Virus record (IMG/VR): IMGVR_UViG_3300028454_000171
Coordinates: 2,540 to 66,539 of that record
From: a virus
Taxonomy: Duplodnaviria > Caudoviricetes
Strand: one strand, 5' to 3'
DNA length: 64,000 nt
A program made the translations under genes and the position numbers. Numbering within the stretch: position 1 is the stretch's first letter; the number at the start of each line of letters is the position of its first letter. A model generated the notes under the pieces. It worked only from the letters and a program-made list of their open reading frames with translations. It searched no databases and had not been told where the DNA came from. Positions 39,704 through 62,336 of the stretch are shown here, piece after piece.

Positions 39704-39726
39704 GGCTCTTGTCAGCCGTCTCGCAT

Positions 39727-39876
39727 TTTCGATTGCTAGAATGTCTTCGGTCTAGCTGCCGCGTCCTTTTCTCCAAGTGTTACCCCGGCCACCCCGGATG
39801 CTTCCTGAAAAGTACCGAAAAGCTACTGAGATCTAAGCCCAGCTTTTTCCTTTCAAAAAGCTGAGGAAAAATCAAG
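39727..39876 (-). ncRNA. Unassigned conserved structured element, copy A
   Basis: 31-nt and 25-nt blocks identical to 62,240-62,305; covarying hairpins. Confidence 0.6.
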
Positions 39877-39911
39877 TCTTTTACCCACTTACTAGGTGCC
39901 GTTGCGGTAGT

Positions 39912-39974
39912 GACCTGCCATCATCAGAGCCGGTGGGTCAGTTCCGGCTGACCAGCCTTTCGGCTGGTTTCGGC
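39912..39974 (-). ncRNA. Type II hammerhead ribozyme HH2 (predicted cleavage between 39,950 and 39,949)
   Basis: 63-nt identity with HH1; complete catalytic core. Confidence 0.92.
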
Positions 39975-39975
39975 C

Positions 39976-40302
39976 TTAGAATTCACGAATATAAGAGAGG
40001 TTCATGCTCTGGATTTCTGCTACGAATTTTGCACCTCTTGCAATTTCATCGGCTGCTTTCAAAAGCTCCTCGGTGGTAGAATCCCCGCCCATCCTGCAAA
40101 TGCTGGCAGAGGCCTCGATGTCGATGTGCGCCTTGTGGCTTTTCCAGTCTGTCTTGTCGAAGTTATTGTTCTGCATTATCTGAATGCTGATATACTCATC
40201 AGAGGTGCGCTTGTTGCTCCATCCAAGTGAGTTTTCTTCAATCTCGAAGCCGTACTCAGATGCCTTGCTGCGAATGATTTCAGCGATTTCATTTCTAGTC
40301 AT
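39976..40302 (-). CDS. Hypothetical protein upstream of HH2
   Basis: AGGAGG RBS after the repeated promoter; stop 1 nt before the ribozyme. Confidence 0.75.
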   Translation of the reverse strand: MTRNEIAEIIRSKASEYGFEIEENSLGWSNKRTSDEYISIQIMQNNNFDKTDWKSHKAHIDIEASASICRMGGDSTTEELLKAADEIARGAKFVAEIQSMNLSYIREF

Positions 40303-40339
40303 CTTGGGTTCCTCCTGTCATTCTGTTCAGGTGTTATGA

Positions 40340-40626
40340 TTTATCTTGTCTTCATCTTAACACGCTATCTGTATATTGCAATAGTTTTTACGAATTAAAT
40401 TCAATATATTTCACTAAAAGTCGTAATGTCCACGGACGAAAATTTTCTGCTCTCTGTATGCCTTCTGGTTTCCCTCTGGTCAGTTTTCCTGCGATAGCCT
40501 AAAGAAGAATATACGAAAATTATTTTTGCGCCGTAGGAGCGATATTCTCTGAGCCTTTGTGTGATAAGGGATTGCGGGCTTCGGAAAAGCGGAGAGGGGG
40601 CGGCTATGTTCACCGGGAAAACACAC
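40340..40626 (-). repeat. Repeat R, copy 2, with promoter at 40,354-40,381
   Basis: Reverse complement of the blocks in copies 1 and 3. Confidence 0.9.
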
Positions 40627-40666
40627 GAAAGCAGAAAAATGCCGAGGGCTGAAAAGCCCCCAGCAA

Positions 40667-41149
40667 CTATTTCTTCGGCTTCCAAGTCCCGATGGCTTCG
40701 ATGCCGAACAGCAGCACCGCCATATCCTCGAAAGCCCTGTCAATATACCGATAGAACGTGCGGCGGTCAACGTCGCCCAGGCGGGCGGCTATCTCCTCGA
40801 TGGTCAGCCGCTCGTCCGAAATATACCGCAGATACAAGGCATCCCATCGCATCGCCTCGTGGCGTTCCACGGCACTCTCGCACAGGGCCTTGTATGCCGA
40901 CAGCATCCTGTCCACATGGCTCATCATCAATCCTGTCTTCCGCTTCAGCGAGCATATGGCGTTGACCTCCAACGCCTCCGGCGAGACGTGGGCGTAATGG
41001 GCTTTCAGCTTGCGGTAATTCTTCATCAGGAGCTTCACGTCATGGTATCTAGCATCCAGCTCCTCCTTGACGATGCTGTCCCGCTTGGCTAACGCCTCAA
41101 CCGCCGCAATGCGGGCTATTTCCGCAATTTCTTCCTTCTGCATGGGCAT
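40667..41149 (-). CDS. Late transcriptional activator-like protein (RinA/ArpU/sigma region-4 type)
   Basis: C-terminal HTH LTIEEIAARL...RRTFYRYI; last gene of the replication module. Confidence 0.7.
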   Translation of the reverse strand: MPMQKEEIAEIARIAAVEALAKRDSIVKEELDARYHDVKLLMKNYRKLKAHYAHVSPEALEVNAICSLKRKTGLMMSHVDRMLSAYKALCESAVERHEAMRWDALYLRYISDERLTIEEIAARLGDVDRRTFYRYIDRAFEDMAVLLFGIEAIGTWKPKK

Positions 41150-41158
41150 CCTCCTTTT

Positions 41159-42538
41159 CTACCTGCATTGTCTGCACAATCTGCTTATGCGGGCTTTGAG
41201 GGCGGCAAGCAGGGCTTCCTGCATATCGCCCTTGTTCTTCAGTGCCTCCATGACCGTCTCATCCATCCCGCCCTGCACGACAAGATGGTGAATGACCACT
41301 GGATGCTCCTGCCCCTGACGGTGCAGACGCTTGTTCGCTTGTTCATACTGCTCAAGGCTCCACGTCAACCCGAACCACACGGCATGATAGCCGCCCTGCT
41401 GCAAATTCAGTCCATAGCCGCAACTGGCAGGGTGGGCGAGAAGGATGTCGATTAACCCGGCATTCCAGTCTGCCTCGTCCTGCGCTTGCGAGTAGACCCT
41501 GACCCGCAGCTTAGTTTTCGCCAGCGTATCAAGCAGCCGGTCACGGTCATGCTTGAAATCGTAAAACACGAGGGCGTGCTGCCCGTTCAACTGCTCGACC
41601 AGTTCCATGAAGGCATCCAGCTTGCAGTTGTGGACGGGGACGACCTTCCTATCCTCGCTGTAAACCGCCCCGTTGCAAAGCTGCAACAGCTTGCCCGTCA
41701 GCACCCCCGCACTGCCAGCGGTGATCGTCTCATCGTTCACTTCCAGCAGCAGCTCGCGCTCCAACTGCTCATAGGCTTTCTTCGCCTTGGCATCGAGAGC
41801 CACAGGAACCTCGTTATAAACGATGTCCGGCAAGCTGATGTAGTCGCTGGCCTTCATGCTGATGCAGATGTCGCTGATGGCCCGCTTAATCATCTCGAAG
41901 CTGCCGTCCTTCGGCTCGTAATTGAATATCGTCGTCTGGTTTCTCCTGCCGGGGACGAAGTACCTGTCGCGGTAAGCACCAAGAGTCTTGCCGAGCCGCT
42001 GACCCCCGTCCAGCAGGAAAATCTGCGCCCACAGGTCTTCCAGCCCGTTGCTTGCGGGCGTACCTGTCAGCTCCACAATGCGCCGGATGCGAGAGCGGAC
42101 AAGGCGGAGAGCCTTGAACCGCTTGCTCTGGCTGTTCTTGAACGAAGAGCTTTCATCCAGCACTACCATGTCGAAGGGCCACGAATTCTTGAAGTGCTCG
42201 ACCAGCCACTGCGTATTCTCGCGATTGATGACATACACATCAGCAGGGGTGGCAAGGGCTTTCAGCCGCTGGCTTACCGTGCCGAGGACGGGGACAATCC
42301 GCATCATCCGCAGGTGCTCCCATTTCCTCGCCTCGGCAGTCCAGGTGGCCTCGGCTACCTTCTTCGGCGCGATGATAAGCGGCTTCGATACCTCCCACCG
42401 ATTGTAGCGGAGGTCGTGGAGGGCGGTCAGCGTGATGACAGTCTTGCCGAGTCCCATATCAAGTAGCAAGCCGACTGCCGCATTGCGAATCACATAGTCA
42501 ATGCAAAACTGCTGATAGGGGTACGGCTTAAATTCCAT
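41159..42538 (-). CDS. SNF2-family helicase
   Basis: DMGLGKT, VVLDESS, LTGTP, QANKRLHRQGQ. Confidence 0.93.
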   Translation of the reverse strand: MEFKPYPYQQFCIDYVIRNAAVGLLLDMGLGKTVITLTALHDLRYNRWEVSKPLIIAPKKVAEATWTAEARKWEHLRMMRIVPVLGTVSQRLKALATPADVYVINRENTQWLVEHFKNSWPFDMVVLDESSSFKNSQSKRFKALRLVRSRIRRIVELTGTPASNGLEDLWAQIFLLDGGQRLGKTLGAYRDRYFVPGRRNQTTIFNYEPKDGSFEMIKRAISDICISMKASDYISLPDIVYNEVPVALDAKAKKAYEQLERELLLEVNDETITAGSAGVLTGKLLQLCNGAVYSEDRKVVPVHNCKLDAFMELVEQLNGQHALVFYDFKHDRDRLLDTLAKTKLRVRVYSQAQDEADWNAGLIDILLAHPASCGYGLNLQQGGYHAVWFGLTWSLEQYEQANKRLHRQGQEHPVVIHHLVVQGGMDETVMEALKNKGDMQEALLAALKARISRLCRQCR

Positions 42539-42851
42539 TTTCCATCACCGCCTTCAGCCTTCGTATGCTATCATCGTTCTCAATCTCAGCCAGCAGAGCC
42601 TTGACCTCATCTGCGCCTTTGACAACTCTCACATCAGCCCCGCGTTTCTTCAACTGCTCGACCGTGTGCCGCTGCAATTTCGTCAGGCGGCCAGTCTCGG
42701 TCTTCAGTTCCGCAAAAATCACTCTGCCCGTGGCGGTCACGATGATTCGGTCAGGGACACCCGGCGTACCGGGGCTGACGAATTTCATGCACATCCCGCC
42801 GAGCTTCTTCACGCCATCGACCAGGCGACGTTCAATCTGTTTCTCAAGCAT
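42528..42851 (-). CDS. VRR-NUC nuclease
   Basis: GTPGVPDRI...FAELK..GRLTKLQ. Confidence 0.9.
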   Translation of the reverse strand: MLEKQIERRLVDGVKKLGGMCMKFVSPGTPGVPDRIIVTATGRVIFAELKTETGRLTKLQRHTVEQLKKRGADVRVVKGADEVKALLAEIENDDSIRRLKAVMENGI

Positions 42852-42854
42852 AGC

Positions 42855-43130
42855 CTAACCTCGCCAAATCCAAAATCCCTCACGGGCAACGATGCGCGGC
42901 CCCTCGAAGCGGCGGGCATTTTTTATGCTCTGCCGCGAAAAGCCCAACTTCGCACCCTCCTCGAAAATCGTCTCGCGCAGCATCGAGCCGTGCGACTTCA
43001 GCAGCCCTTCAAGCCACTCGATTTTGTCGGCCTCAGCGGCGTATTTTTCAACCGGAATCATGGCGAAACAGCACCTCCAAATCCTTATATTACTCAATAT
43101 AGGTATATTAGGTACATTAGGCATATACAT
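42855..43130 (-). CDS. Small hypothetical protein (start probably near 43,060)
   Basis: ORF coupled to VRR-NUC. Confidence 0.45.
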   Translation of the reverse strand: MYMPNVPNIPILSNIRIWRCCFAMIPVEKYAAEADKIEWLEGLLKSHGSMLRETIFEEGAKLGFSRQSIKNARRFEGPRIVAREGFWIWRG

Positions 43131-43370
43131 TATTTACCTATATTCTCTAAAACACCTATTCTTCTATTCTATTAAGATTAAATGTTTCAATGTTTCAATA
43201 TAACTATAAGTATAGATATATCAAGGCTTCACGCCGAAACAACCCCGAAACAAGCCCTGAAACTTGATAACAAACTAGCCCGAAACAATGGGTTGAATTT
43301 CGTGCCTAAACTTAGACTTTCGTGCCTAAATTGTTCTGCAAAGTCGAAGTTTCGCCCCTTTGGAAACATC
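43085..43370 (-). other. Putative replication origin downstream of the primase gene (copy 2 of the origin-like segment)
   Basis: AT-rich tract, CGAAACAA and AACATTGAAAC repeats; homologous to 13,470-13,740. Confidence 0.65.
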
Positions 43371-43373
43371 TCA

Positions 43374-45785
43374 TCAACGCTTTCTGCGGAATCCCCTTTG
43401 GTATCCGCAGTACCCAAAGCGCAGCCCGTTCGAGGTTTTTTCCCACATCGGCATCGACCTCAATATGTCATTTATCTCAGTCGTCGTCGTGTAGGACAAA
43501 TCCTTCATCTGCCCATTCAGCACCTCGCACCATATCTCCAAGGCGCATACCCTGTCGCGGGGGACGAGGTTTTCCGCAGTCCCTTCGCCGTTCAGGAACA
43601 TACGCCTCTTTTCCAGCGACCACTTCTGCCAGTCTTCCGGCACGGGCCTCTCAAGGAACTCAGCTATCAAGCCTTCGAGGTTCCCAGCTTCGCGGTGTTC
43701 CTCCTGCACGACCTTGGCCTCGTTCTCCACGTCGCCGATAAGGTGCAGGCTCTCGCCGATGCGCCACCGCATGACAGCCTCTGCCCAAATCTGGTCGATT
43801 TCCTGATTGAGCTGCTTCCAGATGTCCTTCTTCCGCTGGAACACCCCGACATCCACAGGCCAAAACCGGCGGTTGCCTGTCCTGTCCCGCAGGAACTCGG
43901 TTGTGTTCGTCGTACCGAAGAACACGCAGCATCGTGGTATATCCTTGACGTGCCGTCCGTAGGCCGCCCTGAAGCGGTCATACCGAAGGCTCAGGAACTG
44001 CTTGATGCGGGACACATCCGTCTTGCGGAAAGCGTCCAGCTCCTGTATCTCGATAAGCCATACGCCTTGCAGCAATTCGCTGGCTTCCTTGCCCTCGAAG
44101 GTGCGGATGCCGTCGTTGAACCACCCACGGCTCATGCGGTCGAGAAAGGTGGATTTGCCGAGGCCCTGCGGCCCAGAAAGAATCAGCATCGTGTCATACT
44201 TGCAGCCGGGGGTCATGGCCCGTGCTACTGCCGCCGTAAACGCCTTTCGTGTAACGGCCCGCACGTAGTTGCTGTTCGCGGCGCCAAGGTAGTCCACCAA
44301 AATCGTGTCCAGCCTCGGAACACCGTCCCATTGCAGCCCGCTGAGGTAGTTCTTCACGTCATTGAACTTGTGCTTCTCGCTGTGGAGCGACAGGGCACCG
44401 TCAATCTTCCCGTTGCCTGTAATCTTGTAAACCTTCTCGAAATACCAGTACAGGCCCTGATTGTCATTGTCGGCCCATGCCCTGCGGCCCGCGAATGGAC
44501 TCCACGGCAATTCGCCGAGGATTTCCCCGCGCCCTGCGAACTCGTTCAATGCGAACTTGCCACGAAGGTTCGGGTCATTTTCCAGTATCAGCCAAATGTT
44601 GTCGATGGTTGCCTTGATGGCCCCGGTCTGGCTGTTCAGTTCCAGCTCCGTCGTCCAGTCCAGACTACCCTCGTCATCTTCGTGTGTGGCAAGCTGGCCG
44701 AAGTCGCTTACTGCTGATTCAGCCCGTTCCTTGGCAAGCTGCCTCGATACCTTGGCATCTGCCACAGCCAGTTCGCACATCATCTGATAAGAGGGGAGGC
44801 GGTTCGCCGGGGTGTTTGCCCCGGCATCATCATCTGCGTCCCCGAACTTGTGAAGCCTCACGAGGTCGAACGCATTGACCAGCCTTCCGCTGCAAGGGTC
44901 AGTGGAGTGGTGCGAGTAAAGGAACAGTCCATTGTCGTAAATAACGGCACCACCAGTGGTGCTGCCGCCAAGGTAGGTATATCGCCCTTGCATTCCGTCC
45001 ACCGGCGCGTAAATGCCGGGAAGGAACGTCTCCATTGCGGCATATATGTCATAAGTCCGGCAGAACGCCCCGATGATGCCAGCCTTTGTCACGGGATCTG
45101 ATTGCTTTGTCGCGAGCTTGCGATAAGCGTTTTCCGAGCCAGGGACTTGCGGCCAGTTCGTAACGTCCTTCCAGTCACCGTACCTCTCTGTGACGGCTTC
45201 GAGGAGGCCGTCCACGGACAGCATAGGCTTGTCCTCGAAGGTGAAGATGTATTCGCCGTCAGCGCAGCAGCTCGGCCAGTACATCAAGCGTGATGCCTCG
45301 AACGTGGTTGGGTCTGCGAACTCCATGCCGATAGCCGCAGCCATATATCTGGCGGCTGGCTCGTACTCGTCCGCCGATGCTGAACGGTCGAATGGCAGCA
45401 GGATGCGGAGCCGGGGAGTGGTGGGGGAGTGCTTGCGTGTGGAGTAGATGCAGTACCCGCACCCAAGTCCCTCCACACGACGCAGCACATCCTCCGTGCC
45501 TCCCGGCGGAATGTTGTCGAAGTCCAGCGTGATGAGGTCACGTCCCGTAACCGCACCGGCTTTGCGGCGGGCGCCGGAGAGGCTGCCCGCCACGAACCCG
45601 CCGATGTCCTTCTTGTCGTCCTGCTCGGACTTCTTCAGGGCAAGGTACTCAGCCATCGTCTCCGTGGAACGGCTGGGAATACGGAGCTTTTCATAGAACT
45701 CCGACAGCATCATGGTCTGCGGCTGCCAGCTTACGCTCCGGCGATTGCTGCCGACGGATAAAATGATTTTGCGGTCATGCTGCAT
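43374..45785 (-). CDS. Primase-polymerase/VapE-like SF3 helicase (virulence-associated E family)
   Basis: YSTRKH, PRLRI N-terminus; ILSGPQGLGKST; FFGTTN; RTGNRRFWP. Confidence 0.93.
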   Translation of the reverse strand: MQHDRKIILSVGSNRRSVSWQPQTMMLSEFYEKLRIPSRSTETMAEYLALKKSEQDDKKDIGGFVAGSLSGARRKAGAVTGRDLITLDFDNIPPGGTEDVLRRVEGLGCGYCIYSTRKHSPTTPRLRILLPFDRSASADEYEPAARYMAAAIGMEFADPTTFEASRLMYWPSCCADGEYIFTFEDKPMLSVDGLLEAVTERYGDWKDVTNWPQVPGSENAYRKLATKQSDPVTKAGIIGAFCRTYDIYAAMETFLPGIYAPVDGMQGRYTYLGGSTTGGAVIYDNGLFLYSHHSTDPCSGRLVNAFDLVRLHKFGDADDDAGANTPANRLPSYQMMCELAVADAKVSRQLAKERAESAVSDFGQLATHEDDEGSLDWTTELELNSQTGAIKATIDNIWLILENDPNLRGKFALNEFAGRGEILGELPWSPFAGRRAWADNDNQGLYWYFEKVYKITGNGKIDGALSLHSEKHKFNDVKNYLSGLQWDGVPRLDTILVDYLGAANSNYVRAVTRKAFTAAVARAMTPGCKYDTMLILSGPQGLGKSTFLDRMSRGWFNDGIRTFEGKEASELLQGVWLIEIQELDAFRKTDVSRIKQFLSLRYDRFRAAYGRHVKDIPRCCVFFGTTNTTEFLRDRTGNRRFWPVDVGVFQRKKDIWKQLNQEIDQIWAEAVMRWRIGESLHLIGDVENEAKVVQEEHREAGNLEGLIAEFLERPVPEDWQKWSLEKRRMFLNGEGTAENLVPRDRVCALEIWCEVLNGQMKDLSYTTTTEINDILRSMPMWEKTSNGLRFGYCGYQRGFRRKR

Positions 45786-46141
45786 TCTTCTTCCTCCCGA
45801 TTCCAGCGGTCTTTCGGAATGCCGATGCTATTGAATACCTTGATGGGGATGTTCCACGTCTTTGCCATGGCAAGCTCTTTCGCCATGCCCTCTGACACCG
45901 TGGCTCCCCATTGCCAGACTTCATCGCAATCGGCCAGGAACGCAAGCCCCGCCTCAATGCCCAGCTTCCTCTCATCAGGGTCGTTGTCATCAAGGCAGTG
46001 GGGGTAGATAAGATGCGGGGCAAATGGCGCATAGCCATGCGAGAGCGCCCACCCACAGGCGAAATAAGCACGGTCGATATTTTCCTGAACCGTATGCCTC
46101 GCATCAGCGCGATACCGCGAGCAGATATATACCTTCTTCAT
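45731..46141 (-). CDS. DUF4406-like (nucleoside deoxyribosyltransferase-like fold) protein
   Basis: KKVYICSRY, FAPHLIYP, CDEVW, SEGMAKE. Confidence 0.7.
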   Translation of the reverse strand: MKKVYICSRYRADARHTVQENIDRAYFACGWALSHGYAPFAPHLIYPHCLDDNDPDERKLGIEAGLAFLADCDEVWQWGATVSEGMAKELAMAKTWNIPIKVFNSIGIPKDRWNREEEECSMTAKSFYPSAAIAGA

Positions 46142-46383
46142 ATCTTGACTCCCTCCTCAAGCATCATAGCCATAGCATCGTTTATCATGCTGCCGAATTC
46201 CTTCAGCGGTACTTTGCCTTCCTCGTGCAGGTTCTTTATGAGCAAGGCAATCGCGAAAGCAATCTGCGGGGGATTTCCCTTGCAGGCCACGGCCATTCCT
46301 GCGCCGTGCTTGCAGGAAACAATTCCGAACTCGCTTCCCTCCATCATTTTTTTTGTCAGGTCAATCAAGTCATTCCCTGTCAT
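46138..46383 (-). CDS. Hypothetical protein
   Basis: Overlapping-stop/start operon ORF. Confidence 0.6.
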   Translation of the reverse strand: MTGNDLIDLTKKMMEGSEFGIVSCKHGAGMAVACKGNPPQIAFAIALLIKNLHEEGKVPLKEFGSMINDAMAMMLEEGVKI

Positions 46384-46834
46384 TCGTCATGGCCTCCTTC
46401 AAATCTGCTTGCAGCTTTTTCACATAATACTCGGCAATATCGTCGGCGCATTCTTGGTACTTGAGTCTGTCTTCCAGCTCTTTTTCAAGTTGCTCCTTCT
46501 GCTGTTTGCTCAAGTGCGGGAGCTTTCTGCGGAGGTAGTCGCAGATAAGTCCAGGCGCATACGAGTGTCGGTTTACGGCGTATCGCAAGGCGAAAACCAT
46601 CACCGTAAAATCTTCCGGGACTACAGGGCGAAAGTTCCACATCTTGACCGCTACGGCCTTCGTTTCTGCGGAAAGGGCACGGCTGCATTTCGTGCATTCG
46701 ACAAAGCATTCGCCCTTGCAGTCCGGCAGGTCGGGACACATCTTCTTCAGCCAGTTAGGGTGAGTATGCGGGGCCACTTCAATCAGCGTTGCCTGTCCTC
46801 CGCAGATACAGGGCTTCAATTCCTCATTATCCAT
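46370..46834 (-). CDS. Lar-like (restriction alleviation) zinc-finger protein with C-terminal extension
   Basis: ELKPCICGG...VECTKC...AVKMWN. Confidence 0.65.
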   Translation of the reverse strand: MDNEELKPCICGGQATLIEVAPHTHPNWLKKMCPDLPDCKGECFVECTKCSRALSAETKAVAVKMWNFRPVVPEDFTVMVFALRYAVNRHSYAPGLICDYLRRKLPHLSKQQKEQLEKELEDRLKYQECADDIAEYYVKKLQADLKEAMTNDRE

Positions 46835-46845
46835 CGCAGGGCCTC

Positions 46846-47121
46846 CTAAATCTTGCTGTACTCGGCTTCTCTGGCTGCAATCTTTTTCTTGGCAAAGTCC
46901 ATTGCGAGCTTGGCAAATTCCTTCACAACCTCGACATCTGATTCATTAAGGACGACGCTTTCTTCGCCATCCTTCTCATAAAATGCCAAGCTGAAAGACC
47001 CGATATTGTCTATTTCTGTTTCCACCACTGCATAAAAACCTTCCATGTGGGCTATTTTGCCACCCAGCACTTCAGCCGCCTTGATTCGTTTCTTCTGCAA
47101 TTCCAGCTCATCCGATGTCAT
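46846..47121 (-). CDS. Hypothetical protein
   Basis: Operon ORF with RBS. Confidence 0.6.
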   Translation of the reverse strand: MTSDELELQKKRIKAAEVLGGKIAHMEGFYAVVETEIDNIGSFSLAFYEKDGEESVVLNESDVEVVKEFAKLAMDFAKKKIAAREAEYSKI

Positions 47122-47402
47122 GGCTGAACCTCCTTTTTCGCTGTCTCGAACGCCATCATCAGCCTCATACTGGCGTTCACCAGATGAGGCTCGGAGCGGT
47201 CGCCCATGCGGTACAGGTTGATGTGCCGCATGGCACGGGAAAGATGCTCGTCAGCAGGTATCTGCCGCCATGTCTCGCCGGGATGCTTCACAGCTCCCTT
47301 GGTCAGCCCTTCTGCAATGGCATCAAGCCAAGCAGGGGAGGTGTAGCGGTACTCATTCGGCTCGGTATCCTGCGGGAATTCAATCTGCGTTGTCGTTGTC
47401 AT
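47118..47402 (-). CDS. dATP/dGTP diphosphohydrolase-like protein (DUF5664-like)
   Basis: GAVKHPGETWRQ...AMRHI...HLVNASMRLMM. Confidence 0.65.
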   Translation of the reverse strand: MTTTTQIEFPQDTEPNEYRYTSPAWLDAIAEGLTKGAVKHPGETWRQIPADEHLSRAMRHINLYRMGDRSEPHLVNASMRLMMAFETAKKEVQP

Positions 47403-47670
47403 CTTTCAGTGCCTCCAAAAGCTTCTGGTGAAAGTCAATCCATTCGTCATTCATCTGCTTGCACAGTTTTGCCCAATCTTCATTCTGCTTGTCGATGAAG
47501 TCAGACCACTGATGGTTTATCTTCCAAGCGAACACCCATGTAGTGCCCGCCGCCAGCAATGATATGACCGTCAGTAAAGCCATCATAGTTTCAATTCCCA
47601 TTTGGTTCATCAGCCTCCACTTTCTCGAAACGGTATTTCTGTGGCGCATTGGGATACTTCTTGCGGTCAA
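47380..47670 (-). CDS. Small membrane-anchored hypothetical protein
   Basis: One TM helix; start uncertain. Confidence 0.5.
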   Translation of the reverse strand: MTARSIPMRHRNTVSRKWRLMNQMGIETMMALLTVISLLAAGTTWVFAWKINHQWSDFIDKQNEDWAKLCKQMNDEWIDFHQKLLEALKDDNDNAD

Positions 47671-47854
47671 CCTCGCTCATAAACATCGCAAGGGGACGTA
47701 CATAGATGCCCTCAGCGCCGTACATAGCCTGATAACAAATCATGCGTTCGTCAGTCTCCGTATGGAATACAGGACAGGCAATGACGCGATAATCGTGGTT
47801 CTTGAAATGCCGCCATGTTTCTCCGGCTTTCGGCAACTCTCTCATTCGCCCCAT
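47591..47854 (-). CDS. DUF1653-like protein
   Basis: GETWRHFK...HTET...YQAMYG...YVRPLAMFMSEVD. Confidence 0.8.
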   Translation of the reverse strand: MGRMRELPKAGETWRHFKNHDYRVIACPVFHTETDERMICYQAMYGAEGIYVRPLAMFMSEVDRKKYPNAPQKYRFEKVEADEPNGN

Positions 47855-53841: not shown

Positions 53842-53863
53842 GATTTTGACCCCTTTCATCACA

Positions 53864-54337: not shown

Positions 54338-54360
54338 TCTCAACGGTTTGCTGGATTTGC
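54337..54360. other. Right inversion junction / attP right arm
   Basis: ATCTCAACGGTT core plus arm ACGGTTTGCTGGATTTGC. Confidence 0.85.
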
Positions 54361-54383
54361 ACAAACGACTAGGAGGACAGAAA

Positions 54384-56072
54384 ATGGAAATGCAGGAAAA
54401 AATTGAGAAGGCTCGCAAGGACATCTGGCAAGCCATCGAGGACTATGGTCGGCACAGCAATTTGACCGATGTTCTTGACGATGTGACCGATGCGTTCGTG
54501 GACAGGCTGGCAAAAGACAGTGTGAAGGCCAAGCAGGAGCTTCGTGAAATGTTCCGCAAGTCTCCGGCATGGAACGAGGATTTGGATGCGCTGGTCATCA
54601 ATGGGACGCGGACACATGACCCGAACTACAGCAGGGTGCATGATTTGGCGTTTGATATATTAGATCCCGTATTTAATGGCAGGTGTAACCCAGATGATGT
54701 ATATGCGGCTGTAAAGCTATTCACGCAGTATGGCGGCGACCATTCTGAAGCGATTGCAGCTATTGGCAGATTGGCTCCGAAAGCATACGCCCCCGGCAAG
54801 AAAAAGAGCCGCATTTTCAAGGCAATGTGTCAGGCGTTGGGCATCGCTGATGAGACTGCCGGAAGCAGGTTCCAGCATCTCTATGCGCAGTTGGCAGATG
54901 AGCTGTCAGCCAAAAAGATTTCGTTCAAGTTGTACGTCAGCTTGAACCCGGCGCATTTCGTAACCATGTCGAATCCGAAGCAGGATAAGCGTGGGAACAC
55001 GATGACAAGCTGCCATTCGTTCAACAGTGCCGAGTACCAGTACAACAACGGTTGTTCTGGGTACGCACGGGATAACTGTACGATGATTGCATTTACCGTG
55101 TCAGACCCGAATGAGCCGGAAACGCTCAATAATCGCAAGACAACGCGCCAGCTCTATATGTACCGCCCTGGTAACGGATTGCTGTTGCAGAGCCGGATGT
55201 ATAACACGAGCGGTGGCACGGAGGGGGCGCAGACTGAATCGAAGCTCTATCGCGACCTGATACAGCGGGAAATCTCCGAATGCGAGGGTATGCCGAACCT
55301 GTGGAAGACGTTCAAGTATTACAACAACGGCAAGGGTATCAATTTCCGCGTCGGAGATGGCTTCGGTGGCTATCCTGACTGGACGTACAGCAACTTCGCA
55401 GCGATGGTCAGTCTCCGCCATGACCATGAGCTTGATTACAGGGTGTTCAACATTGGAACGTGGGGGCTGTGCATCTCTTGCGGGCAGGAAACCGGTTTTG
55501 GTCTTTACTGCGAGGATTGCAACGATGATGGACGTGCAGAATGTGCGGAATGCGGCGACCGTTATAGCGAAGATGACCTCTACACCGTGTATAGCAGCTT
55601 AGGTTGTGAAATGCGGGTTTGCCGCGATTGCCGGGACGAGTATTACGAGTATTGCGAAGACTGCGAGGAGTATTACCACCGTGATGCCGTTACGCAGTTA
55701 GCTAATGGCAGGTATGTCTGTAATGATTGCCGTGACAGGCATTATCGGATTTGCGATGAGTGCGGCGAGTGGTTTCACCGGGATGATATGAGCGTAGCAG
55801 TAGATGCGAACGGTTGTGAGGTTCATATCTGCAACGGCTGCCGTGATTACTATTATTACCATTACGTTGAGTGCGATGATTGTGGTCGGTATGTCCGCAG
55901 CAATCACGTCACGGATGCGCACCGTGAAGGTGTTGAAGTATCGGTTTGCCCGGACTGCATCAGCAGTTACTCTGAGTGCGATGAATGCGGCGACTGGTAT
56001 CACGATGATGATTTGCAAGATGGCTTTTGCCCGGATTGCATCAAGAAAAGAGAGGAGGCTGAGGCTGTATGA
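54384..56072 (+). CDS. Hypothetical protein with a C-terminal array of 12 CxxC motifs
   Basis: AGGAGG RBS; CxxC count by eye. Confidence 0.75.
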   Translation: MEMQEKIEKARKDIWQAIEDYGRHSNLTDVLDDVTDAFVDRLAKDSVKAKQELREMFRKSPAWNEDLDALVINGTRTHDPNYSRVHDLAFDILDPVFNGRCNPDDVYAAVKLFTQYGGDHSEAIAAIGRLAPKAYAPGKKKSRIFKAMCQALGIADETAGSRFQHLYAQLADELSAKKISFKLYVSLNPAHFVTMSNPKQDKRGNTMTSCHSFNSAEYQYNNGCSGYARDNCTMIAFTVSDPNEPETLNNRKTTRQLYMYRPGNGLLLQSRMYNTSGGTEGAQTESKLYRDLIQREISECEGMPNLWKTFKYYNNGKGINFRVGDGFGGYPDWTYSNFAAMVSLRHDHELDYRVFNIGTWGLCISCGQETGFGLYCEDCNDDGRAECAECGDRYSEDDLYTVYSSLGCEMRVCRDCRDEYYEYCEDCEEYYHRDAVTQLANGRYVCNDCRDRHYRICDECGEWFHRDDMSVAVDANGCEVHICNGCRDYYYYHYVECDDCGRYVRSNHVTDAHREGVEVSVCPDCISSYSECDECGDWYHDDDLQDGFCPDCIKKREEAEAV

Positions 56073-57046
56073 TTTCGTTGGAGAAGTTCTTGACACCGAC
56101 CCAGAAGGAACTGTATGCGCTGGTTCGCAAGATGTATAAAGGCCGCACGATTTGCTGCAAAAAGAGTTTTGTGCTTGTCTATGGTGAAGCGCCGGTTATG
56201 CTGGTGGCGCACATGGACACCGTGCATAACGAGCGGGTAAAGCATATCTGCACGACGCAGGATGGCAACATCCTGATGTCTCCCCAGGGCATCGGCGGTG
56301 ATGACCGCTGCGGGGTATATGCGCTAGTCAATGCGTATGAGGCGGCAGAGAAGAAGCCGTGGCTCTTATTCACCTGCGATGAAGAAATCGGAGGCAGGGG
56401 GGCAGATAACTTCTGCCGCAAGTATAAAGACGGAAAGTTGCCGAAAGAGCTGGCTGACCTGAAGCTGATAATCGAGATTGACCGCAGGGGCAGCGAAGAT
56501 GCGGTGTATTACAGTTGCGACAACAAGGAGTTCGAGGATTACATCACGAGCAAAGGGTTCAAGACGGCCAGCGGGTCGTTCAGCGATATTTCGTACATAG
56601 CGCCAGATTTGGGCGTGGCGGCTGTGAACCTTTCGTCCGGCTATTACAACGCCCACACGCAGCATGAGTACATCAATCGCCAGCATATTGATGCTGTAAT
56701 TGCGAAAGTGAATGAAATCGTGGCTGAAGCTGCGAAGCCTGATTTCCCGAAGTACGAATACATTGAGAAGAAGGTAGAGCTGGTCAGAAGGGTGTTCCCG
56801 TATGCAAGTCCGAGTAACTGGTGGAAACATGATAAAGATGACGATGATGGCGTTGTGACCCTGCATACGAACATCCCGAAGGACTTGCCGGTGAAGTATA
56901 AGACGATGTACGACGAACTGCTTGACTATTACGAGATGACAGACCTTGAGGTATACCGTGAAATGTATGGCAATGAAGTGATTGAGGAGATGTACCGCAA
57001 TGAAATTTGGCCGCAGTACAACGACGGATGGGGTGACTTGAAATGA
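56069..57046 (+). CDS. M28/M42-like zinc peptidase
   Basis: AHMDTVH, GGDDRCG, DEEIG, GYYNAHT. Confidence 0.85.
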   Translation: MISLEKFLTPTQKELYALVRKMYKGRTICCKKSFVLVYGEAPVMLVAHMDTVHNERVKHICTTQDGNILMSPQGIGGDDRCGVYALVNAYEAAEKKPWLLFTCDEEIGGRGADNFCRKYKDGKLPKELADLKLIIEIDRRGSEDAVYYSCDNKEFEDYITSKGFKTASGSFSDISYIAPDLGVAAVNLSSGYYNAHTQHEYINRQHIDAVIAKVNEIVAEAAKPDFPKYEYIEKKVELVRRVFPYASPSNWWKHDKDDDDGVVTLHTNIPKDLPVKYKTMYDELLDYYEMTDLEVYREMYGNEVIEEMYRNEIWPQYNDGWGDLK

Positions 57047-57570
57047 TTGAGAAGGGCATGACGATAAAAGATGCTGCCCATCAGTGGGTGCGCGAGTTTG
57101 ATGCAATCCAGCAGGGCCTGATTAAGAAACTGATGGATGCCGAGCCCGATGACTGGAATGAGATCACGCTGCCGGTCGCAGGAAACCGGGTGTACGTCTA
57201 TGACGAGCAGAATAGCGGTGAGGTCATCAAGCAGGGCAAGAGTAAAGACAAGTTCCGTGTCAAGCTGGACAGCGGCAAAGAAATCTGGGTCAAGAAGGGC
57301 GACTTCGATATTGAGTTTGATGAACGCCTTCCGATGTGGGGAACGATGTGGTCGTTCAGTGATTCGCTCGATACGCATTGGCTTGAGGAGGAAGATGGGC
57401 TTGAGGCCATGTCCGAATGCGGGTTCAGAATTTTTGAGAGCGAGGAGTTCGGCTGTTTCTTCGGTATTGATGGCGCTGGCTACGATTTTTATGAGGCTCA
57501 TTGGATTCCGCTCTACAAGGCTCGTGGCCTGAAGTGGCATGACCCGGAAACGGAGGTGAAAGCATCGTGA
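57043..57570 (+). CDS. Hypothetical protein
   Basis: Coupled ORF; FGIDGAGYDFYEAHWIPLY. Confidence 0.7.
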   Translation: MIEKGMTIKDAAHQWVREFDAIQQGLIKKLMDAEPDDWNEITLPVAGNRVYVYDEQNSGEVIKQGKSKDKFRVKLDSGKEIWVKKGDFDIEFDERLPMWGTMWSFSDSLDTHWLEEEDGLEAMSECGFRIFESEEFGCFFGIDGAGYDFYEAHWIPLYKARGLKWHDPETEVKAS

Positions 57571-59945
57571 GACTGAAGAACGCAGATGGACTTCTGCTGA
57601 AGAACATCTGGGCGTTCCTCGAAACCAGCGGGCGGCATGACCTGTCCGCTGGTCTTCGGGAACTGCTCGACAGATATGAGAAAGACAAGGCAGAGGTTCA
57701 GGCAGCTAACCGTAGACGTGCGCTGGAAAATCGAAAAGCGGGGTATACCTGGCCGTCCGTGCCTGTCCCGAAGACCAGCAAGTATTACGGGAAGGAGGCG
57801 GGGACGCATGAGTAAGAAGGAGTGGGCAGTCCTGATATTTTTCGTGGTGTTGCTGGTAGCTAGCTTTTCCGTTGGTGTAGCAATCTCGAATGACTGCCAT
57901 AGAATTCGTGGATTGCTGTGAGGAGGGTAAAAGATGGACAGGGTTTTGATGACGCAGGATGATGTGAAGATGCTGTTTGAATGGCTGCAAAAGCACAAGG
58001 CGCAGGTTCGTAAGTTTCCATGTCCGCTGAAAGCAGTTGAGATAGTGCTTACACATAATGCGATACGGATAAAGGGCATCCGCGATGGCAAGTGGCTGAA
58101 GCTCTATGTGTACCGTGGCAATGAGAACCTGGGCAAGATGGAGTTCGAGATTGACTTTGAGGCCCAGCATCTGCTGTTACGTAAATGCACGACGATTTCA
58201 TGTGCGTGTATTTGGTTTAGGAGGGCAGTATGAAGCAGAGCATATATTATCATGGCGAGCCGAATGCCAAGTATGGCATTTGGAAAGATGGCTGGAAGTT
58301 TGAGGTTTGTGAGGACACGCCGATGTTGGCGATGGCTCGCCTGTACCAGAAAATCGGTCATGAGGCAAAGAAGTATGAGCCGAGAAGATTGCCGAAAGGA
58401 GGTCTGCCGAAATGATTGCGATGGAGCAGGAACCCGGCATGAAGGGGTTTACGGAATTGACGACATGGGCATTCCTGCAACCCGGCTCTGCTGCCAAGCC
58501 GAACATTACGGCGTTGAAGTTAGCAGTGGCAGACCTTTGTAGGATGGTGACGCAGAAGACAGCAGGGCAGAAACGCCCCGGTTCCGACAAAAAGTATTGC
58601 GAACGTGACCTGAGCGTTGCCGAGAATTTGGAGCGTGTGAAGTTTACGATTATTGCTGAGGCGACTCTGCTGGTTCTGTCGGGCAAATTGGATGAATTGA
58701 AGGAGGATGCAAAATGAAAGTCAGCATGGAAGAAAAGAAGGCCGAAGCCATCAAGCGGATGAAAATGCTGAAGCTGTTCCCGGAAGTAATCAGGCAGTTT
58801 GAGCAGGATGGTTTGGTCAGCCTGAGTTATCCGCCCTTCGGCGCTCACTTCTGGCTCGATGACGAGCAAAAGAAAATCGTGGCCGCATTCGAGAAAGAGA
58901 ACGATGCCTTGGTGTTCACCGGCATCCGCAGTTATACGAACATCGGCATGATGGATTCGTTCCTGTTCGTGAGCGATTATGCGGAGGAATGGGAGATGGA
59001 ACGGCAGGATTTCAAGAACAGCACTGCGCTGGCCTACGTCTACAATCACGCTATGCCGGACTGCTCTGAGATGGGCTGCATTGGCATTGCGCCTACGCCC
59101 GCAGCAGGACTTCGCCGGACGTGGTAAGGGAGGTGATGAAGAATGGCCGAATGGTGTTTGGCTCACCCGTGGATGACATTTATTTTGCTGCTGGTTTTGT
59201 TCAGCAGCTTGAAAATCCATTTCGGCGTCGGTGCTTGGCAAAAAGAAATTCGGCTTGCAAATCGCATTCACGAGCTTGAAGAAATTCTTTGCCCTTGCGA
59301 ACAGCACGATTGGGTGAAAGTTGGTCAGAAAATGGTTGGTGGTACAGGCCACGGTGACGAGCAGTGCATTGAACGGTATGTTTGTCGCAAATGCAAGAAA
59401 GAAAAGGAGATGTAATAGGCATGAGGTACATGGTGCGTTTTAGCAAATTGAGTTATGGGCAAGTGGAAGTCGAAGCAAAGTCTGAGGAGGAAGCGAAGAC
59501 GATTGCATCCGGCAAAGCAGTCGATTATTTCGATGAGGAAATCACGGATGTTACGGCAGAGCCGATAGGCATGATAAATGCCGATACGATTCGCCGGATG
59601 GATAATCGCGAACTCGCAGAATTTCTCGTGGAGCGTTGTGGATGTCCGCCTGACCGTGATTCTGATAAATGCACAACCGGCGCTTGCGATTCATGCTGGT
59701 GGCGGTGGCTGACGAAAAAAGCTGAAACTGGTAACGGCAGAACGTATACGGTAACAGAATGCTGCCCGCATTGCCAGAGTGAGATTGAAATGCGGTGGAA
59801 TACTGATACCGATGGCTTCAAAGCGTTTTGTCCGGTATGCGGCAATCGTCTTATGCTTTGCGATGAATGCAGTCATGCGGAAAACAGCAAAGGCTGCGAT
59901 TATGATACGCGGTCTGATAGCTGTCGTTATAGCAGGAAAAGCTGA
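57567..59945 (+). CDS. Run of small coupled hypothetical ORFs (57567-57815, 57808-57921, 57934-58233, 58230-58415, 58412-58717, 58714-59127, 59143-59415, 59421-59945)
   Basis: Overlapping start/stop codons and RBSs; no recognisable motifs except a zinc finger in the last. Confidence 0.6.
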
Positions 59946-60445
59946 TGATTTCCGTGTATGAGTATGCCCCCTTGAAAGGCTTCGAGGGGACGTATGAGGT
60001 CAACAGGCTTGGCGACATAAAGCGTGTAGGCAAGGAAAAGTCGATGAAGCAAAGGGTTGCCGATGGTTATAAAGTTGTCACGCTGAGTGTTGGTGGAAAA
60101 GCTCGGCAGTATCGGGTACAAACGCTCGTAGGTAGAACATTCCTGCGTCCGCTCGAAAAAGGCGAATGCTATTTTCACAAGAATGGCGACAAGCTGGATA
60201 ACTGGGTGAACAATTTGGAAATACGCACCATGCGTGATGTATACCGAGATATTGGTAAAAGCGGAACACGAGCAAGACCTGTTGAGCAGATTGATGAAAG
60301 TGGCAAGGTCATAGACAGTTTCAAAAGTGCGAAAGCAGCCAGCGAGGAACTGTTCCTATCCTTGCCGCAAGTTCTGCTCAGGCTCAATCGAAAAATGAAA
60401 AGAAAAATCCCACCGTTTTTGCGGTGGGCACAGGGGGTGAAATGA
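59945..60445 (+). CDS. NUMOD4/HNH homing endonuclease-like protein
   Basis: FEGTYEVNRLGDIK, HKNGDKLDNWVNNLE, RPVEQID...FKSAKAAS. Confidence 0.8.
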   Translation: MISVYEYAPLKGFEGTYEVNRLGDIKRVGKEKSMKQRVADGYKVVTLSVGGKARQYRVQTLVGRTFLRPLEKGECYFHKNGDKLDNWVNNLEIRTMRDVYRDIGKSGTRARPVEQIDESGKVIDSFKSAKAASEELFLSLPQVLLRLNRKMKRKIPPFLRWAQGVK

Positions 60446-60819
60446 TGAGTTATTCGAGAGGCGAGATTTATTTTGTGGAGAAGTTTAAGACATTTGGCTC
60501 CGAGCAGTGGTCTGGCAGACCGGGCATTATTGTGTCTGGTGATTTGAACCGGCATAACAGCACGGTAGTGATGGTGTATCTTACGACGCAGCCGAAACGT
60601 GAAATGATTACGCACATTCCGATTTATGCAACAGGGCTGCCGAGCATAGCGATATGCGAGCAGATTCATACCGTGGATTGCAGACGTTTGGGACGGTTTT
60701 GCGGGAAATGCAGTGAGGCTGAGATGAAAGCCATTGATGTGGCTTTGAAAGCATCGCTTGGTCTGAACAGGATAGAAAAGTGCCTGTTATGCGGGAAAGA
60801 AACGGTATGCAAAGTTTAG
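60442..60819 (+). CDS. PemK/MazF-like endoribonuclease
   Basis: RGEIYFV...GSEQ..GRPGIIVS...EQIHTVD..RL. Confidence 0.85.
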   Translation: MMSYSRGEIYFVEKFKTFGSEQWSGRPGIIVSGDLNRHNSTVVMVYLTTQPKREMITHIPIYATGLPSIAICEQIHTVDCRRLGRFCGKCSEAEMKAIDVALKASLGLNRIEKCLLCGKETVCKV

Positions 60820-60820
60820 C

Positions 60821-61120
60821 TGTGTGCTTTCCCGGTGAACGCTGATGATAGCGCAGTTTTTTCCGAAGCACGCAATGATAATAACCACAAAGGCTCAGAG
60901 AATATCGCTTCTACGGCATGTAAATAATTTTTGAATAATCTCCTTTAGGCCACAGTCATAAAAACAACCAGACGCGCACCAGTAGCCCCCACAGGCTCTC
61001 AAAATTTCAGCCCGTGGACATTTACCTCTCGCCAGCACTCCTAGTGAAATTTTTTGAAAATAATTCGGAAAAACTATTGCAATATACAGATAGCGTGTTA
61101 AGATGAAGTCAAGATAAATC
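60821..61120 (+). repeat. Repeat R, copy 3, with promoter at 61,077-61,104
   Basis: Same conserved blocks as copies 1 and 2. Confidence 0.88.
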
Positions 61121-61154
61121 ATACAACAAGCCAGACGAGAGGAGCGCGATTGAC

Positions 61155-61421
61155 ATGACTAGCCCGATGATTACTGAGGTTCGCAAGTGGAATTCCATGA
61201 GCGTCAGAAACGTATGCGTAAACAATGACCTCTACACCTGCGGATGCAACGAGGACTACATCCGGCTGCTGGATGAAGTAAATCTCATGGAGCCGACGAA
61301 GGAAAACATCTACCGCGTGGCAACCGACATCGTAAAGCATAGCGATGAGCAGACCGTATCAAACGTGATGTTCCTGCTGGCCAATCAGGCTGTGACAGTT
61401 TCCTTCGCGATAGCAGAATGA
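61155..61421 (+). CDS. Small hypothetical protein upstream of HH3
   Basis: Stop codon abuts the ribozyme. Confidence 0.7.
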   Translation: MTSPMITEVRKWNSMSVRNVCVNNDLYTCGCNEDYIRLLDEVNLMEPTKENIYRVATDIVKHSDEQTVSNVMFLLANQAVTVSFAIAE

Positions 61422-61484
61422 GCCGAAACCAGCCGAAAGGCTGGTCAGCCGGAACTGACCTACCGGCTCTGACGATGGCAGGTC
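61422..61484 (+). ncRNA. Type II hammerhead ribozyme HH3 (predicted cleavage after 61,446)
   Basis: GAAAC, stem III CAGCC/GGCTG, GTC, stem I AGCCGG/CCGGCT, CTGACGA, pseudoknot GACCT/AGGTC. Confidence 0.93.
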
Positions 61485-61529
61485 GTAAGACTTCTAGTAA
61501 AATTTCTTGAAAATATTTCGGAAAAACTA

Positions 61530-61557
61530 TTGCAATATACAGATAGCGTGTTAAGAT
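61530..61557 (+). promoter_or_regulatory. Repeated promoter TTGCAA-16-TAAGAT with extended -10
   Basis: Identical core to the other copies. Confidence 0.85.
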
Positions 61558-61608
61558 GAAGACAAGATAAATCATAACCACTCAACAGAACGAAAGGCGG
61601 TAAGCAAA

Positions 61609-61797
61609 ATGAAAGACCACGAGCTGATGGAAATGATGGCAGCAATCGAGGAAATGAAGCGGAATGCAGAGCAGGTGGAACGCGAGAACGCATTGTACGA
61701 AATGAACCTGCAAGTAGCTGCTGACAGGCTCGAATCTTATGAGTACGGCAGCGAGGAGTACGAGAACAGCATGAACAGCTACCGTGCAATGTTCTGA
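61609..61797 (+). CDS. Small acidic hypothetical protein
   Basis: First ORF after the promoter. Confidence 0.65.
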   Translation: MKDHELMEMMAAIEEMKRNAEQVERENALYEMNLQVAADRLESYEYGSEEYENSMNSYRAMF

Positions 61798-61820
61798 TAG
61801 ATGGTAAGGAGGCGGCGGCA

Positions 61821-62108
61821 ATGAAGACCTTGACGATGCGCGAATATCTTGACCAGAAGACAGCATTCATCAACAAGCATTATGGCACCCGTGGCGGTCG
61901 CGAAAGCAGCGGTGTGGAGGGAGAAACCATCCGCAAGACGGTATGCTTCGAAGATGGTCATGCGTGGGAAGAAATCACGGAGCCTGTGTACGAGATGGTG
62001 GAAGTCGAGAAGCATGGCATGAAGCTCTTAGTGCAGGTCAAGTTTTACCGCACCGAAATATGGGATTCCGACAATCCCAGAAGCAGATATTATTATGAGC
62101 CAGCATAA
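61821..62108 (+). CDS. Small hypothetical protein upstream of HH4
   Basis: AAGGAGG RBS; stop 2 nt before the ribozyme. Confidence 0.7.
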   Translation: MKTLTMREYLDQKTAFINKHYGTRGGRESSGVEGETIRKTVCFEDGHAWEEITEPVYEMVEVEKHGMKLLVQVKFYRTEIWDSDNPRSRYYYEPA

Positions 62109-62110
62109 AA

Positions 62111-62166
62111 TCGAAACAGGGCGTTGGCCCTGTCCAGGGATGGTAGCGCTTCCCTGCTGATGATGA
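62111..62166 (+). ncRNA. Type II hammerhead ribozyme HH4, divergent sequence (predicted cleavage after 62,134)
   Basis: TC-GAAAC-AGGGC/GCCCT-GTC-CAGGGA/TCCCTG-CTGATGA-T-GA; stem II only 2 bp. Confidence 0.82.
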
Positions 62167-62194
62167 CAGCTTATGCGTGGCACTTCTGCAATAG

Positions 62195-62336
62195 CTTGAT
62201 TCTGCCGCTTCTTGAAAGGAAGACTGGCGGAAATTGCCTAGTAGCTTTTCGGTACTTTTCAGGAAGCATCTACGGGGCAGGGTAACACTTGGAGAAAAGG
62301 ACGCGCCAGCCGGTGCGAAGTCATTCCGGCACGAAA
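62195..62336 (+). ncRNA. Unassigned conserved structured element, copy B
   Basis: See copy A at 39,727-39,876. Confidence 0.6.

Follow-up and report, generated by a model that had tools for sequence, protein, structure and literature searches.

An uncatalogued structured RNA behind interchangeable self-cleaving ribozymes in phages of rumen Selenomonadaceae

Two operons with a common RNA element

The DNA analyzed here, referred to as the window, is a 64,000-nucleotide stretch (bases 2540-66539) of the 66.5-kb IMG/VR virus record IMGVR_UViG_3300028454_000171, and our subject is an RNA element of about 155 bases that occurs in it twice. Copy A lies on the minus strand (39726..39886) and copy B on the plus strand (62185..62339); both are whole matches to two covariance models, R1 and R2, with scores of 167.7 and 159.7 bits for copy A and of 179.9 and 158.1 bits for copy B. 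The two copies are placed alike, each in a small operon that consists of a promoter, a small first open reading frame (ORF1), a self-cleaving ribozyme at the ORF1 stop codon, the element, a Shine-Dalgarno site, an unrelated second reading frame (ORF2) and a terminator. At every locus where the element was found, the order on the coding strand is the stop codon of ORF1, a structured slot at or just after that stop, the element, and then the ribosome-binding site of the next ORF, the Shine-Dalgarno site lying in variable sequence 20-170 nucleotides (nt) past P5, the last helix of the element. The units that carry it are early or accessory operons of rumen Selenomonadaceae phages.

In unit A, which runs on the minus strand, a predicted copy of a repeated promoter at 40333-40426 is followed by an ORF1 of 108 amino acids (aa) at 39976..40302, and the cistron behind the element is an ORF2 of up to 109 aa at 39374..39703; neither protein belongs to a known family. 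An intrinsic terminator at 39086-39061 falls inside another listed ORF (38791-39195). Unit B runs on the plus strand, with an ORF1 of 95 aa and no family (61821..62108) downstream of the promoter repeat at 61490-61576, a Macro-domain protein (PF01661, 2.2e-48) encoded behind the element at 62385..62876, and a terminator with a 19-bp stem at the end of the unit (63719-63760). On each coding strand, the first terminator-like match past the element is 640-1400 nt away. BLASTP finds no similarity between the ORF pairs of units A and B, ORF1 and ORF2 are unrelated between loci generally, and a search of regions around the element turned up no protein that all carriers have in common.

A preliminary description of the window, made by reading its sequence, had drawn attention to two blocks that the copies share exactly, over 31 of 31 and 25 of 25 bases. 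Both blocks are present, the 31-mer at 39797-39827 (-) and 62240-62270 (+) and the 25-mer at 39760-39784 (-) and 62281-62305 (+). When up to three mismatches are allowed, each still matches only copies A and B in the window, where no match is expected (100 shuffles). A repeat search of the window returns the same arms, and the complete 66.5-kb record contains copies A and B only. Pairwise alignment of the two copies reveals three hairpins in which the stem sequence differs and pairing is retained; the core is 93% identical between A and B, and the rest of the element 51%.

Relatives, covariation and fold

Relatives were found with degenerate patterns and with the covariance models R1 and R2. 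In a Schwartzia metagenome-assembled genome (MAG; G001) there are two copies, each on its own contig. Copy B together with the hammerhead ribozyme before it (HH4) has a nearly identical counterpart in a Selenomonas MAG (G003) and on a contig that was binned as Mailhella (G002). Genome G071, which corresponds to the IMG/VR provirus L046, carries two copies, and the metagenome contigs L047 and L048 each carry the element. With the window, these relatives make up about six lineages from one host family, and two copies per genome are seen in the window record, G001 and G071. Because the proteins of the G003 prophage are 93-99% identical to those encoded at 53.1-62.4 kb of the window, we take the host to be one of the rumen Selenomonadaceae. 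The element family is rare and narrowly distributed, being carried by 3 of 262 Selenomonadaceae species genomes.

Searches beyond these carriers gave no further member. The exact blocks have no IMG/VR match other than the window's own record, the GenBank phage collection holds no element, and 151 class-level genomes gave no credible match, the covariance-model matches of 20-23 bits obtained there being inside coding genes (MnmA-like, sigma-factor-like and transporter antisense, from translations read by eye). Among 25 helicase-related phages, neither conserved block lies within 10 kb of the helicase gene, and an Rfam scan of the nine closest helicase relatives detected no hammerhead. Loose patterns mostly returned chance matches: a two-block match at L003 and 7 of 10 two-block matches in the genome collection were due to chance, as were 25 matches to the block-1 pattern, mostly in Segatella, with none of 13 tested loci scoring with R2; a further pattern match, in G009, has two mismatches and no covariance-model score.

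The earlier impression that the element belongs to no known family was confirmed. Neither copy matched any family in Rfam 15 (4227 models, including riboswitches, ribozymes, RAGATH motifs and phage RNAs), and permissive scans of 600-nt slices (39500-40100 and 62000-62600) at E<=10 placed over the element only a 22-nt hammerhead piece and noise. At gathering thresholds, the Rfam scan of the whole window returned only an RT-2 RNA, one tRNA and three hammerheads. The RT-2 RNA (RF03077, 116.6 bits) is at 28915-29150 (+); its Rfam name denotes a link to reverse transcriptase genes, and it fits the diversity-generating retroelement noted at 26487-30339. The core of the element was not found in the literature searched, the supplementary motif list of Weinberg 2015 lying outside that comparison. 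The element is thus an uncatalogued structured RNA, new as an RNA family.

Two of the carriers, L037 (JAGAZG010000168.1, labelled Mailhella sp.) and L038 (Selenomonas sp.), are identical over the examined region, the module of HH4 and copy B included. Every other carrier is one of the Selenomonadaceae, so that the name Mailhella (Desulfovibrionaceae) given to L037 probably reflects an error in the binning of a phage contig. L037 and L038 share with the window the module and about 90 nt beyond it and diverge near 62424, at a mosaic junction directly behind copy B. The Macro-domain gene of unit B looks like a recombinant with a replaced N-terminus: its first ~13 codons are sequence common to L037/L038, which diverge after ...GGCAAACTGTCAA, and over 149 aa it shares 91% identity with a longer ORF in G071 (L063:5602-6192). 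In three lineages a protein of about 72 aa (M..IY..REGYG.DQ...TMT.GELI...) is encoded near the element, at L045:3194-3412, on the minus strand of L046 about 944 nt downstream of the element, and on the minus strand of L047 about 1.5 kb upstream; it has 11 cluster representatives (P0001-P0011) among 5.8 billion proteins, none with a Pfam domain.

Collecting homologues and checking them for covariation, as the preliminary description had proposed, bears out its view that the element is a structured RNA. Alignment A6, which comprises nine sequences from about six lineages and was fitted to the covariance model, supports five helices in which 95.9% of cells are paired, and compensatory changes on both sides are seen at 12 of 28 pairs; none of 500 shuffles reaches these values, and slid controls are about 50% paired. 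Sixty-three columns are invariant, including UGAUU, the GAAAGG loop, AAGCAUC, AACACUU, AGGA, GCG and CGAAG.CAU, and identity between lineages is 72-98% in the core and 47-66% in the remaining element. RNAalifold arrives independently at P1, P3 and P5; it also pairs the P4 region, though in a shifted register, and in place of P2 it extends P3 outward. The fold includes G.U pairs and is specific to the coding strand. These pairs, the fixed orientation relative to the genes and the insertions and deletions (indels) of lengths not divisible by three speak for an RNA made from the coding strand, not for a DNA or protein element. A protein-coding element was also rejected directly, as P1 and P4 differ by indels of 1, 2 and 4 nt and by long insertions, and reading frames differ between homologues; compared with L041, L047 lacks 1 nt, which puts the only long frame out of register.

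The 5' hairpin, P1, is long and interrupted and has the cap UU[GAAAGG]AA. It forms when each homologue is folded by itself, and covariation is seen at 4 of its 7 modelled pairs. This is the hairpin with loop GAAAGG of the preliminary description, and it is real in both copies. In copy A (39840..39863 (-)) it is a 9-bp hairpin, CAGCUUUUU/AAAAAGCUG, supported by covariation and closed by the invariant loop at 39854-39849, and in copy B (62205..62230 (+)) an interrupted one, CCGC-U-UCUU / AAGA-CUG-GCGG, with the loop at 62214-62219. P2 is tentative and reads UAGC[UUUUC]GGUA in copy A (39813..39825 (-)), with its counterpart in copy B at 62242..62254 (+); a C-G pair there becomes U-A in L042 and U.G in L043/L048, and one P2 pair is broken in L042.

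The P3-P4 domain occupies 39766..39812 (-) in copy A and 62255..62299 (+) in copy B. P3 is a long-range helix, CUUUUC (39812-39807) with GAAAAG (39771-39766) in copy A, that AAG/CUU continues beyond a 3x3 purine internal loop, AGG/GGA, and the domain further contains the invariant AAGCAUC and AACACUU and the P4 hairpin (39797-39785). P3 is 100% paired in the alignment, with U-A replaced by C-G in L043/L044 and C-G by U-A in L042, L043/L044 and L048, and these exchanges fall within otherwise invariant, ungapped blocks. P4, the hairpin at the tip, covaries and is variable in length; in copy B (62270-62280) it includes one A.C mismatch, where L039 has a G-C pair. P5, the 3' hairpin, has the loop CGAAGNCAU and covaries at 3 of 5 pairs. 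It had been noticed as GCTAG/CTAGC versus GCCGG/CCGGC around CGAAG.CATT, and these stems are likewise real, GCUAG/CUAGC in copy A (39735..39756 (-)) and GCCGG/CCGGC in copy B (62309..62330 (+)), both enclosing the invariant CGAAG.CAU. An extra hairpin 3' of P5, GAAAGG/CCUUUC at 62333..62350 (+), is confined to B-type copies and reads GAAGGG/CCCUUC in L037/L038, a compensatory change.

The long-range pairing of CTTTTC with GAAAAG, also proposed earlier, stands in part: it holds for the second CTTTTC, which forms P3 and shows compensatory changes in relatives, and fails for the first, whose pairing is lost in L042 and L043. Other candidate pairings were also rejected. A hairpin of AGUA with UACU inside the 31-mer loses pairing in L042 and in L043/L044 and clashes with P3, the outward P3 extension of RNAalifold (columns 74-76 with 160-163) has three breaks in L042, two of these changes being compensatory in P2, and pairing of the 5' UAGCGU with the linker ACGC shows no consistent covariation. 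A kissing contact between the loops of P1 and P2 is possible in most members, with a central A.C mismatch in L043/L044.

The ribozyme slot

In the window, the slot between ORF1 and the element is filled by type II hammerhead ribozymes, and the two that the preliminary description had recognized upstream of the copies are genuine Rfam matches. HH2, before copy A, spans 39909..39975 (-), scores 39.7 bits with RF02276 (gathering threshold 37) and begins with the base that follows the stop codon of ORF 39976-40302; HH4, before copy B, spans 62109..62175 (+), scores 39.9 bits with the same model in a local search and begins directly after the stop of ORF 61821-62108. As read from the alignment, HH2 would be cut after GUC between 39950 and 39949, giving a 3' product that starts at 39949, and HH4 between 62134 and 62135, giving one that starts at 62135. 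Since a hammerhead cuts within itself, the suggestion that cleavage would define the 5' end of the element could not be upheld: the predicted new end is 60-73 nt upstream of the element's conserved UUGAUU, near the element and not at its edge.

In other genomes, the slot contains a ribozyme of a different class. Type II hammerheads occupy it in the window, where the gaps to the element are 9 and 22 nt, and in G002 and G003, and twister-P5 ribozymes occupy it in L045, L032 and L047, at 32, 40 and 156 nt upstream of the element, respectively, with scores of 42-54 bits against a gathering threshold of 37.6. On the searched contigs of G001, both twisters are followed by the element. The class of the slot ribozyme is therefore interchangeable, type II hammerhead or twister-P5, and the element is constant. 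As the same element stands behind both, its recurring partner is a ribozyme and not the hammerhead as such, and the tie to self-cleaving ribozymes is stronger than was first claimed. Between twister and element, a small hairpin is common to three loci (L032:400-452, L045:3589-3632 and L047:566-640 (-)), with a covarying stem, the loop AUGGACA(R)/AUGGCAGAAAA and then AACCCCGGUCGCAGACG, which echoes GGUCGCAAC of the twister itself; the hairpin may belong, as a 3' extension, to the ribozyme or to the element.

A further kind of slot is seen in two lineages, G071/L046 and L048. It is a G-rich nested stem-loop of 70-85 nt, at L046:3103-3180 (-), with the same in L043 and L044, and at L048:3570-3655 (+), which spans from the stop codon of a small ORF to the element, matches nothing in Rfam even at E<=10 and contains no promoter. 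The outer helices are CUGGCG/CGCCAG and CUCAAU/AUUGAG, or AAUC/GAUU and CGACC/GGUCG, and the loop contains GGCGGGUG. By its position, the G-rich fold is a candidate for an unrecognized ribozyme. The ORF1 upstream of it (G071/L046 and L048) looks by eye as if it might encode a ribbon-helix-helix-like protein.

The window also holds two hammerheads without an element, HH1 at 38186-38252 (-) and HH3 at 61421-61487 (+), to which HH2 is nearly identical, HH4 being different in sequence; the core of HH3 reads CUGACGA. Each of HH1 and HH3 begins at the stop codon of a small ORF, and within 3-50 nt beyond the ribozyme comes the repeated promoter (38112-38252 (-) and 61421-61576 (+) for ribozyme and promoter together), an extended -10 promoter composed of TTGACC or TTGCAA, 17 nt and TG-n-TAAGAT. 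The ribozyme of such a unit seems to have the role of making the 3' end. Downstream of HH2 and HH4, the repeated promoter is absent, and no match to a consensus promoter occurs on the coding strand.

What the element may do

We suggest, tentatively and with somewhat less than even confidence, that the element is a cis-acting 5' leader of the messenger RNA (mRNA) of the second cistron, which it would stabilize, load with ribosomes, or both. Self-cleavage during transcription would free the element from ORF1 and its ribosomes and would leave ORF2 on an mRNA with a 5'-hydroxyl (5'-OH), as opposed to the 5'-triphosphate of a transcript started at a promoter. Acting in cis, the element would then be a compact 5' domain that keeps the ORF2 mRNA stable and translatable, and its exposed, Shine-Dalgarno-like loop GAAAGG(A) could hold a 30S subunit or another factor. 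In the window, the cistrons that would be started by a ribozyme have the element and those that would be started by a promoter, and thus carry a 5'-triphosphate, do not, and a leader that compensates for the 5'-OH end therefore appears to be the most economical function. The preliminary description had proposed instead a free-standing noncoding RNA matured by the ribozyme. However, the element has no terminator of its own and runs into the ribosome-binding site of ORF2, which fits an mRNA leader better.

Several observations are in keeping with such a leader. The 16S ribosomal RNA of a host (G071) ends in CACCUCCUUUCUAAGG, and the loop GAAAGG together with the next A is a 7-nt complement of UCCUUUC. 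Inside the element there is no conserved terminator, and no conserved start codon lies at Shine-Dalgarno distance from this loop, an arrangement of the type of STAB-SD. In Bacillus thuringiensis cryIIIA, STAB-SD (GAAAGGAGG) is thought to park a 30S subunit and so to block 5'-to-3' decay. Both are found in Firmicutes and have, at a long distance upstream of the start codon, a purine run that resembles a Shine-Dalgarno sequence and is complementary to the same region of the 16S 3' tail; in contrast to STAB-SD, the match in our element is only 7 nt long, is located in a hairpin loop and is part of a far larger conserved fold, and stabilization by it is our supposition. RNase J (TIGR00649, >650 bits) is encoded in all three host genomes, G001, G003 and G071. 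In Bacillus, the 5'-OH product that the glmS ribozyme leaves is degraded by RNase J.

Other observations weigh against this leader reading or limit it. The true 5' end after a hammerhead cut would be the stem I hairpin, 60-73 nt before the element, and two lineages (L043/L044/L046 and L048) have no recognizable ribozyme in the slot. The complementarity to 16S RNA was noticed post hoc, and covariation of an invariant loop cannot be tested. Single-sequence folds of the element are no more stable than shuffled ones (z = -0.8 and -0.4), and the lineages are few (about six) and related, with pairs counted on an alignment fitted to the model. Cleavage, the new 5' end and the effects on stability and translation are throughout what we infer for this leader. 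Moreover, the 63 invariant positions and the conserved internal loops exceed what a simple stabilizer needs and bear more resemblance to an active site or a binding pocket. It is because so large an invariant core points to a partner or activity of greater specificity that we hold the leader reading no more firmly than stated.

Two alternatives are a sensor and a catalyst. We consider it doubtful that the element is a riboswitch-like aptamer or a site for a phage or host protein (for example, GGA-recognizing CsrA) that tunes the downstream accessory genes. A complex conserved fold in a 5' untranslated region would be expected of it, GGA occurs in the P1 loop and at the P3 end of all members, and one downstream gene, the Macro-domain gene, is a plausible counter-defence gene for a phage to regulate. 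However, no conserved expression platform is apparent, with no terminator in or just after the element and the Shine-Dalgarno site 20-170 nt beyond P5 in variable sequence; the downstream genes are unrelated from locus to locus, and the searched regions around the element yielded no protein shared by all carriers. More broadly, the element could belong to a new functional class of RNA that needs a freshly cut 5' end, either as a self-cleaving or end-modifying ribozyme or as a sensor partnering an interchangeable ribozyme (hammerhead, twister or G-rich fold), which we regard as unlikely. That the element itself is catalytic, as a new self-cleaving class in tandem with the upstream ribozyme or as an RNA that caps or ligates the fresh 5'-OH end, is rather unlikely. 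In favor of it, many invariant junction and internal-loop nucleotides beside freely covarying stems are the pattern of small ribozymes, the neighborhood of twister and hammerhead is where twister-sister, pistol and hatchet were found (strategy, PMC5737381), and tandem ribozymes are known in prophages (PMC3088659). [quoted passage not shown]

The remaining explanations place the function elsewhere than in the ORF2 mRNA. A trans-acting small RNA or decoy, for example in counter-defence, would gain a precise 5' end from the ribozyme directly upstream, and two copies per genome (window, G001 and G071) would suit it; it is nonetheless quite unlikely, since no terminator, second ribozyme or conserved 3'-end signal follows, P5 being succeeded by variable sequence and a ribosome-binding site, and the element has no likeness to known antitoxin, CRISPR or tRNA-like families. 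RNA circles made by way of RtcB are unlikely as a general outcome, with RtcB in only one of the three hosts and none in the phage. A processive antitermination signal like nut or put, one copy for each of two oppositely oriented early operons, appears very improbable. The copies do lie on opposite strands, each downstream of a copy of the same early promoter, and the invariant purine-loop hairpin recalls boxB; however, beyond the first terminator none is listed on the strand before the next promoter copy or the window end, so that there is no hint of read-through, copy A is about 14 kb from the divergence point, no N- or Q-like antiterminator gene was identified (boxA was not searched for), and the constant tie to a ribozyme would be left unexplained. 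Finally, we give hardly any credence to a DNA-level element (a recombination site, origin or operator) or a recent duplication. Mosaic junctions near copy B, such as the divergence of L037/L038 near 62424, would be in its favor, but compensatory changes, one-strand G.U pairs and constant orientation to transcription point to RNA, and stems that are about 50% identical beside a core at 93% are not the pattern of a recent duplication.

The leader that we favor can also be compared with an engineered part and with a processed cellular mRNA. RiboJ, an engineered insulator, joins a ribozyme to a fixed structured leader, and tisB +42 is an RNase-processed E. coli mRNA with a standby site. In both, as may be the case here, cleavage removes variable upstream RNA, a fixed structured leader sets expression and the cargo is interchangeable; the comparison is one of mechanism by analogy only, as there is no relationship in sequence or structure.

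By location and covariation, the element is a ribozyme-associated RNA of the RAGATH kind. The name is said to stand for RNAs Associated with Genes Associated with Twister and Hammerhead ribozymes and reportedly goes back to work by Weinberg and colleagues in 2015 and 2017. RAGATH motifs are a known category of structured RNAs enriched near ribozyme-associated genes (PMC5737381), and our element resembles them in being a conserved structured RNA in phage-like regions, beside twister or hammerhead ribozymes, with covarying stems and highly conserved loops. It differs from them in that it shares the ribozyme's own intergenic gap, 9-156 nt downstream, and does not merely lie within a few kb, in that it matches no Rfam 15 family, and in that it comes so far from Selenomonadaceae phages only.

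Hammerhead and twister ribozymes are found by the hundreds between genes of phages and prophages, for a purpose not yet settled (PMC3088659, PMC6765202); a 2019 review describes it as still undefined (PMC6765202). As early as 2011, clustered type II hammerheads were reported between small, unrelated genes of prophages, and it was proposed that they cut long transcripts to gene-length mRNAs (PMC3088659). Only ribozymes were described there, whereas here a constant second RNA module is present and the class of the ribozyme can be swapped. We therefore see in the element a new architecture within a known phenomenon, an interchangeable ribozyme and then a constant leader, the function of which we infer. 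Its reach is limited by the narrow distribution within the Selenomonadaceae (3 of 262 species genomes). One carrier, G071 (IMGVR_UViG_2562617013_000004), appears to be an isolate genome, as its IMG/VR record name includes an IMG genome number, and an inducible lysogen may therefore be available.

A constant RNA behind two unrelated ribozyme classes, together with a promoter behind the ribozymes that have no element, yields a specific and testable leader model. The vague notion that ribozymes process polycistronic RNA would thereby give way to one in which the cut releases a dedicated 5' leader for the next cistron. With the motif, RNA family databases would gain a new entry, and it might also provide an insulator part that is compact and of natural origin. 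If the element should prove to belong to a class of RNA that needs a fresh 5' end, it would be the first defined two-part module of ribozyme plus effector RNA in phages.

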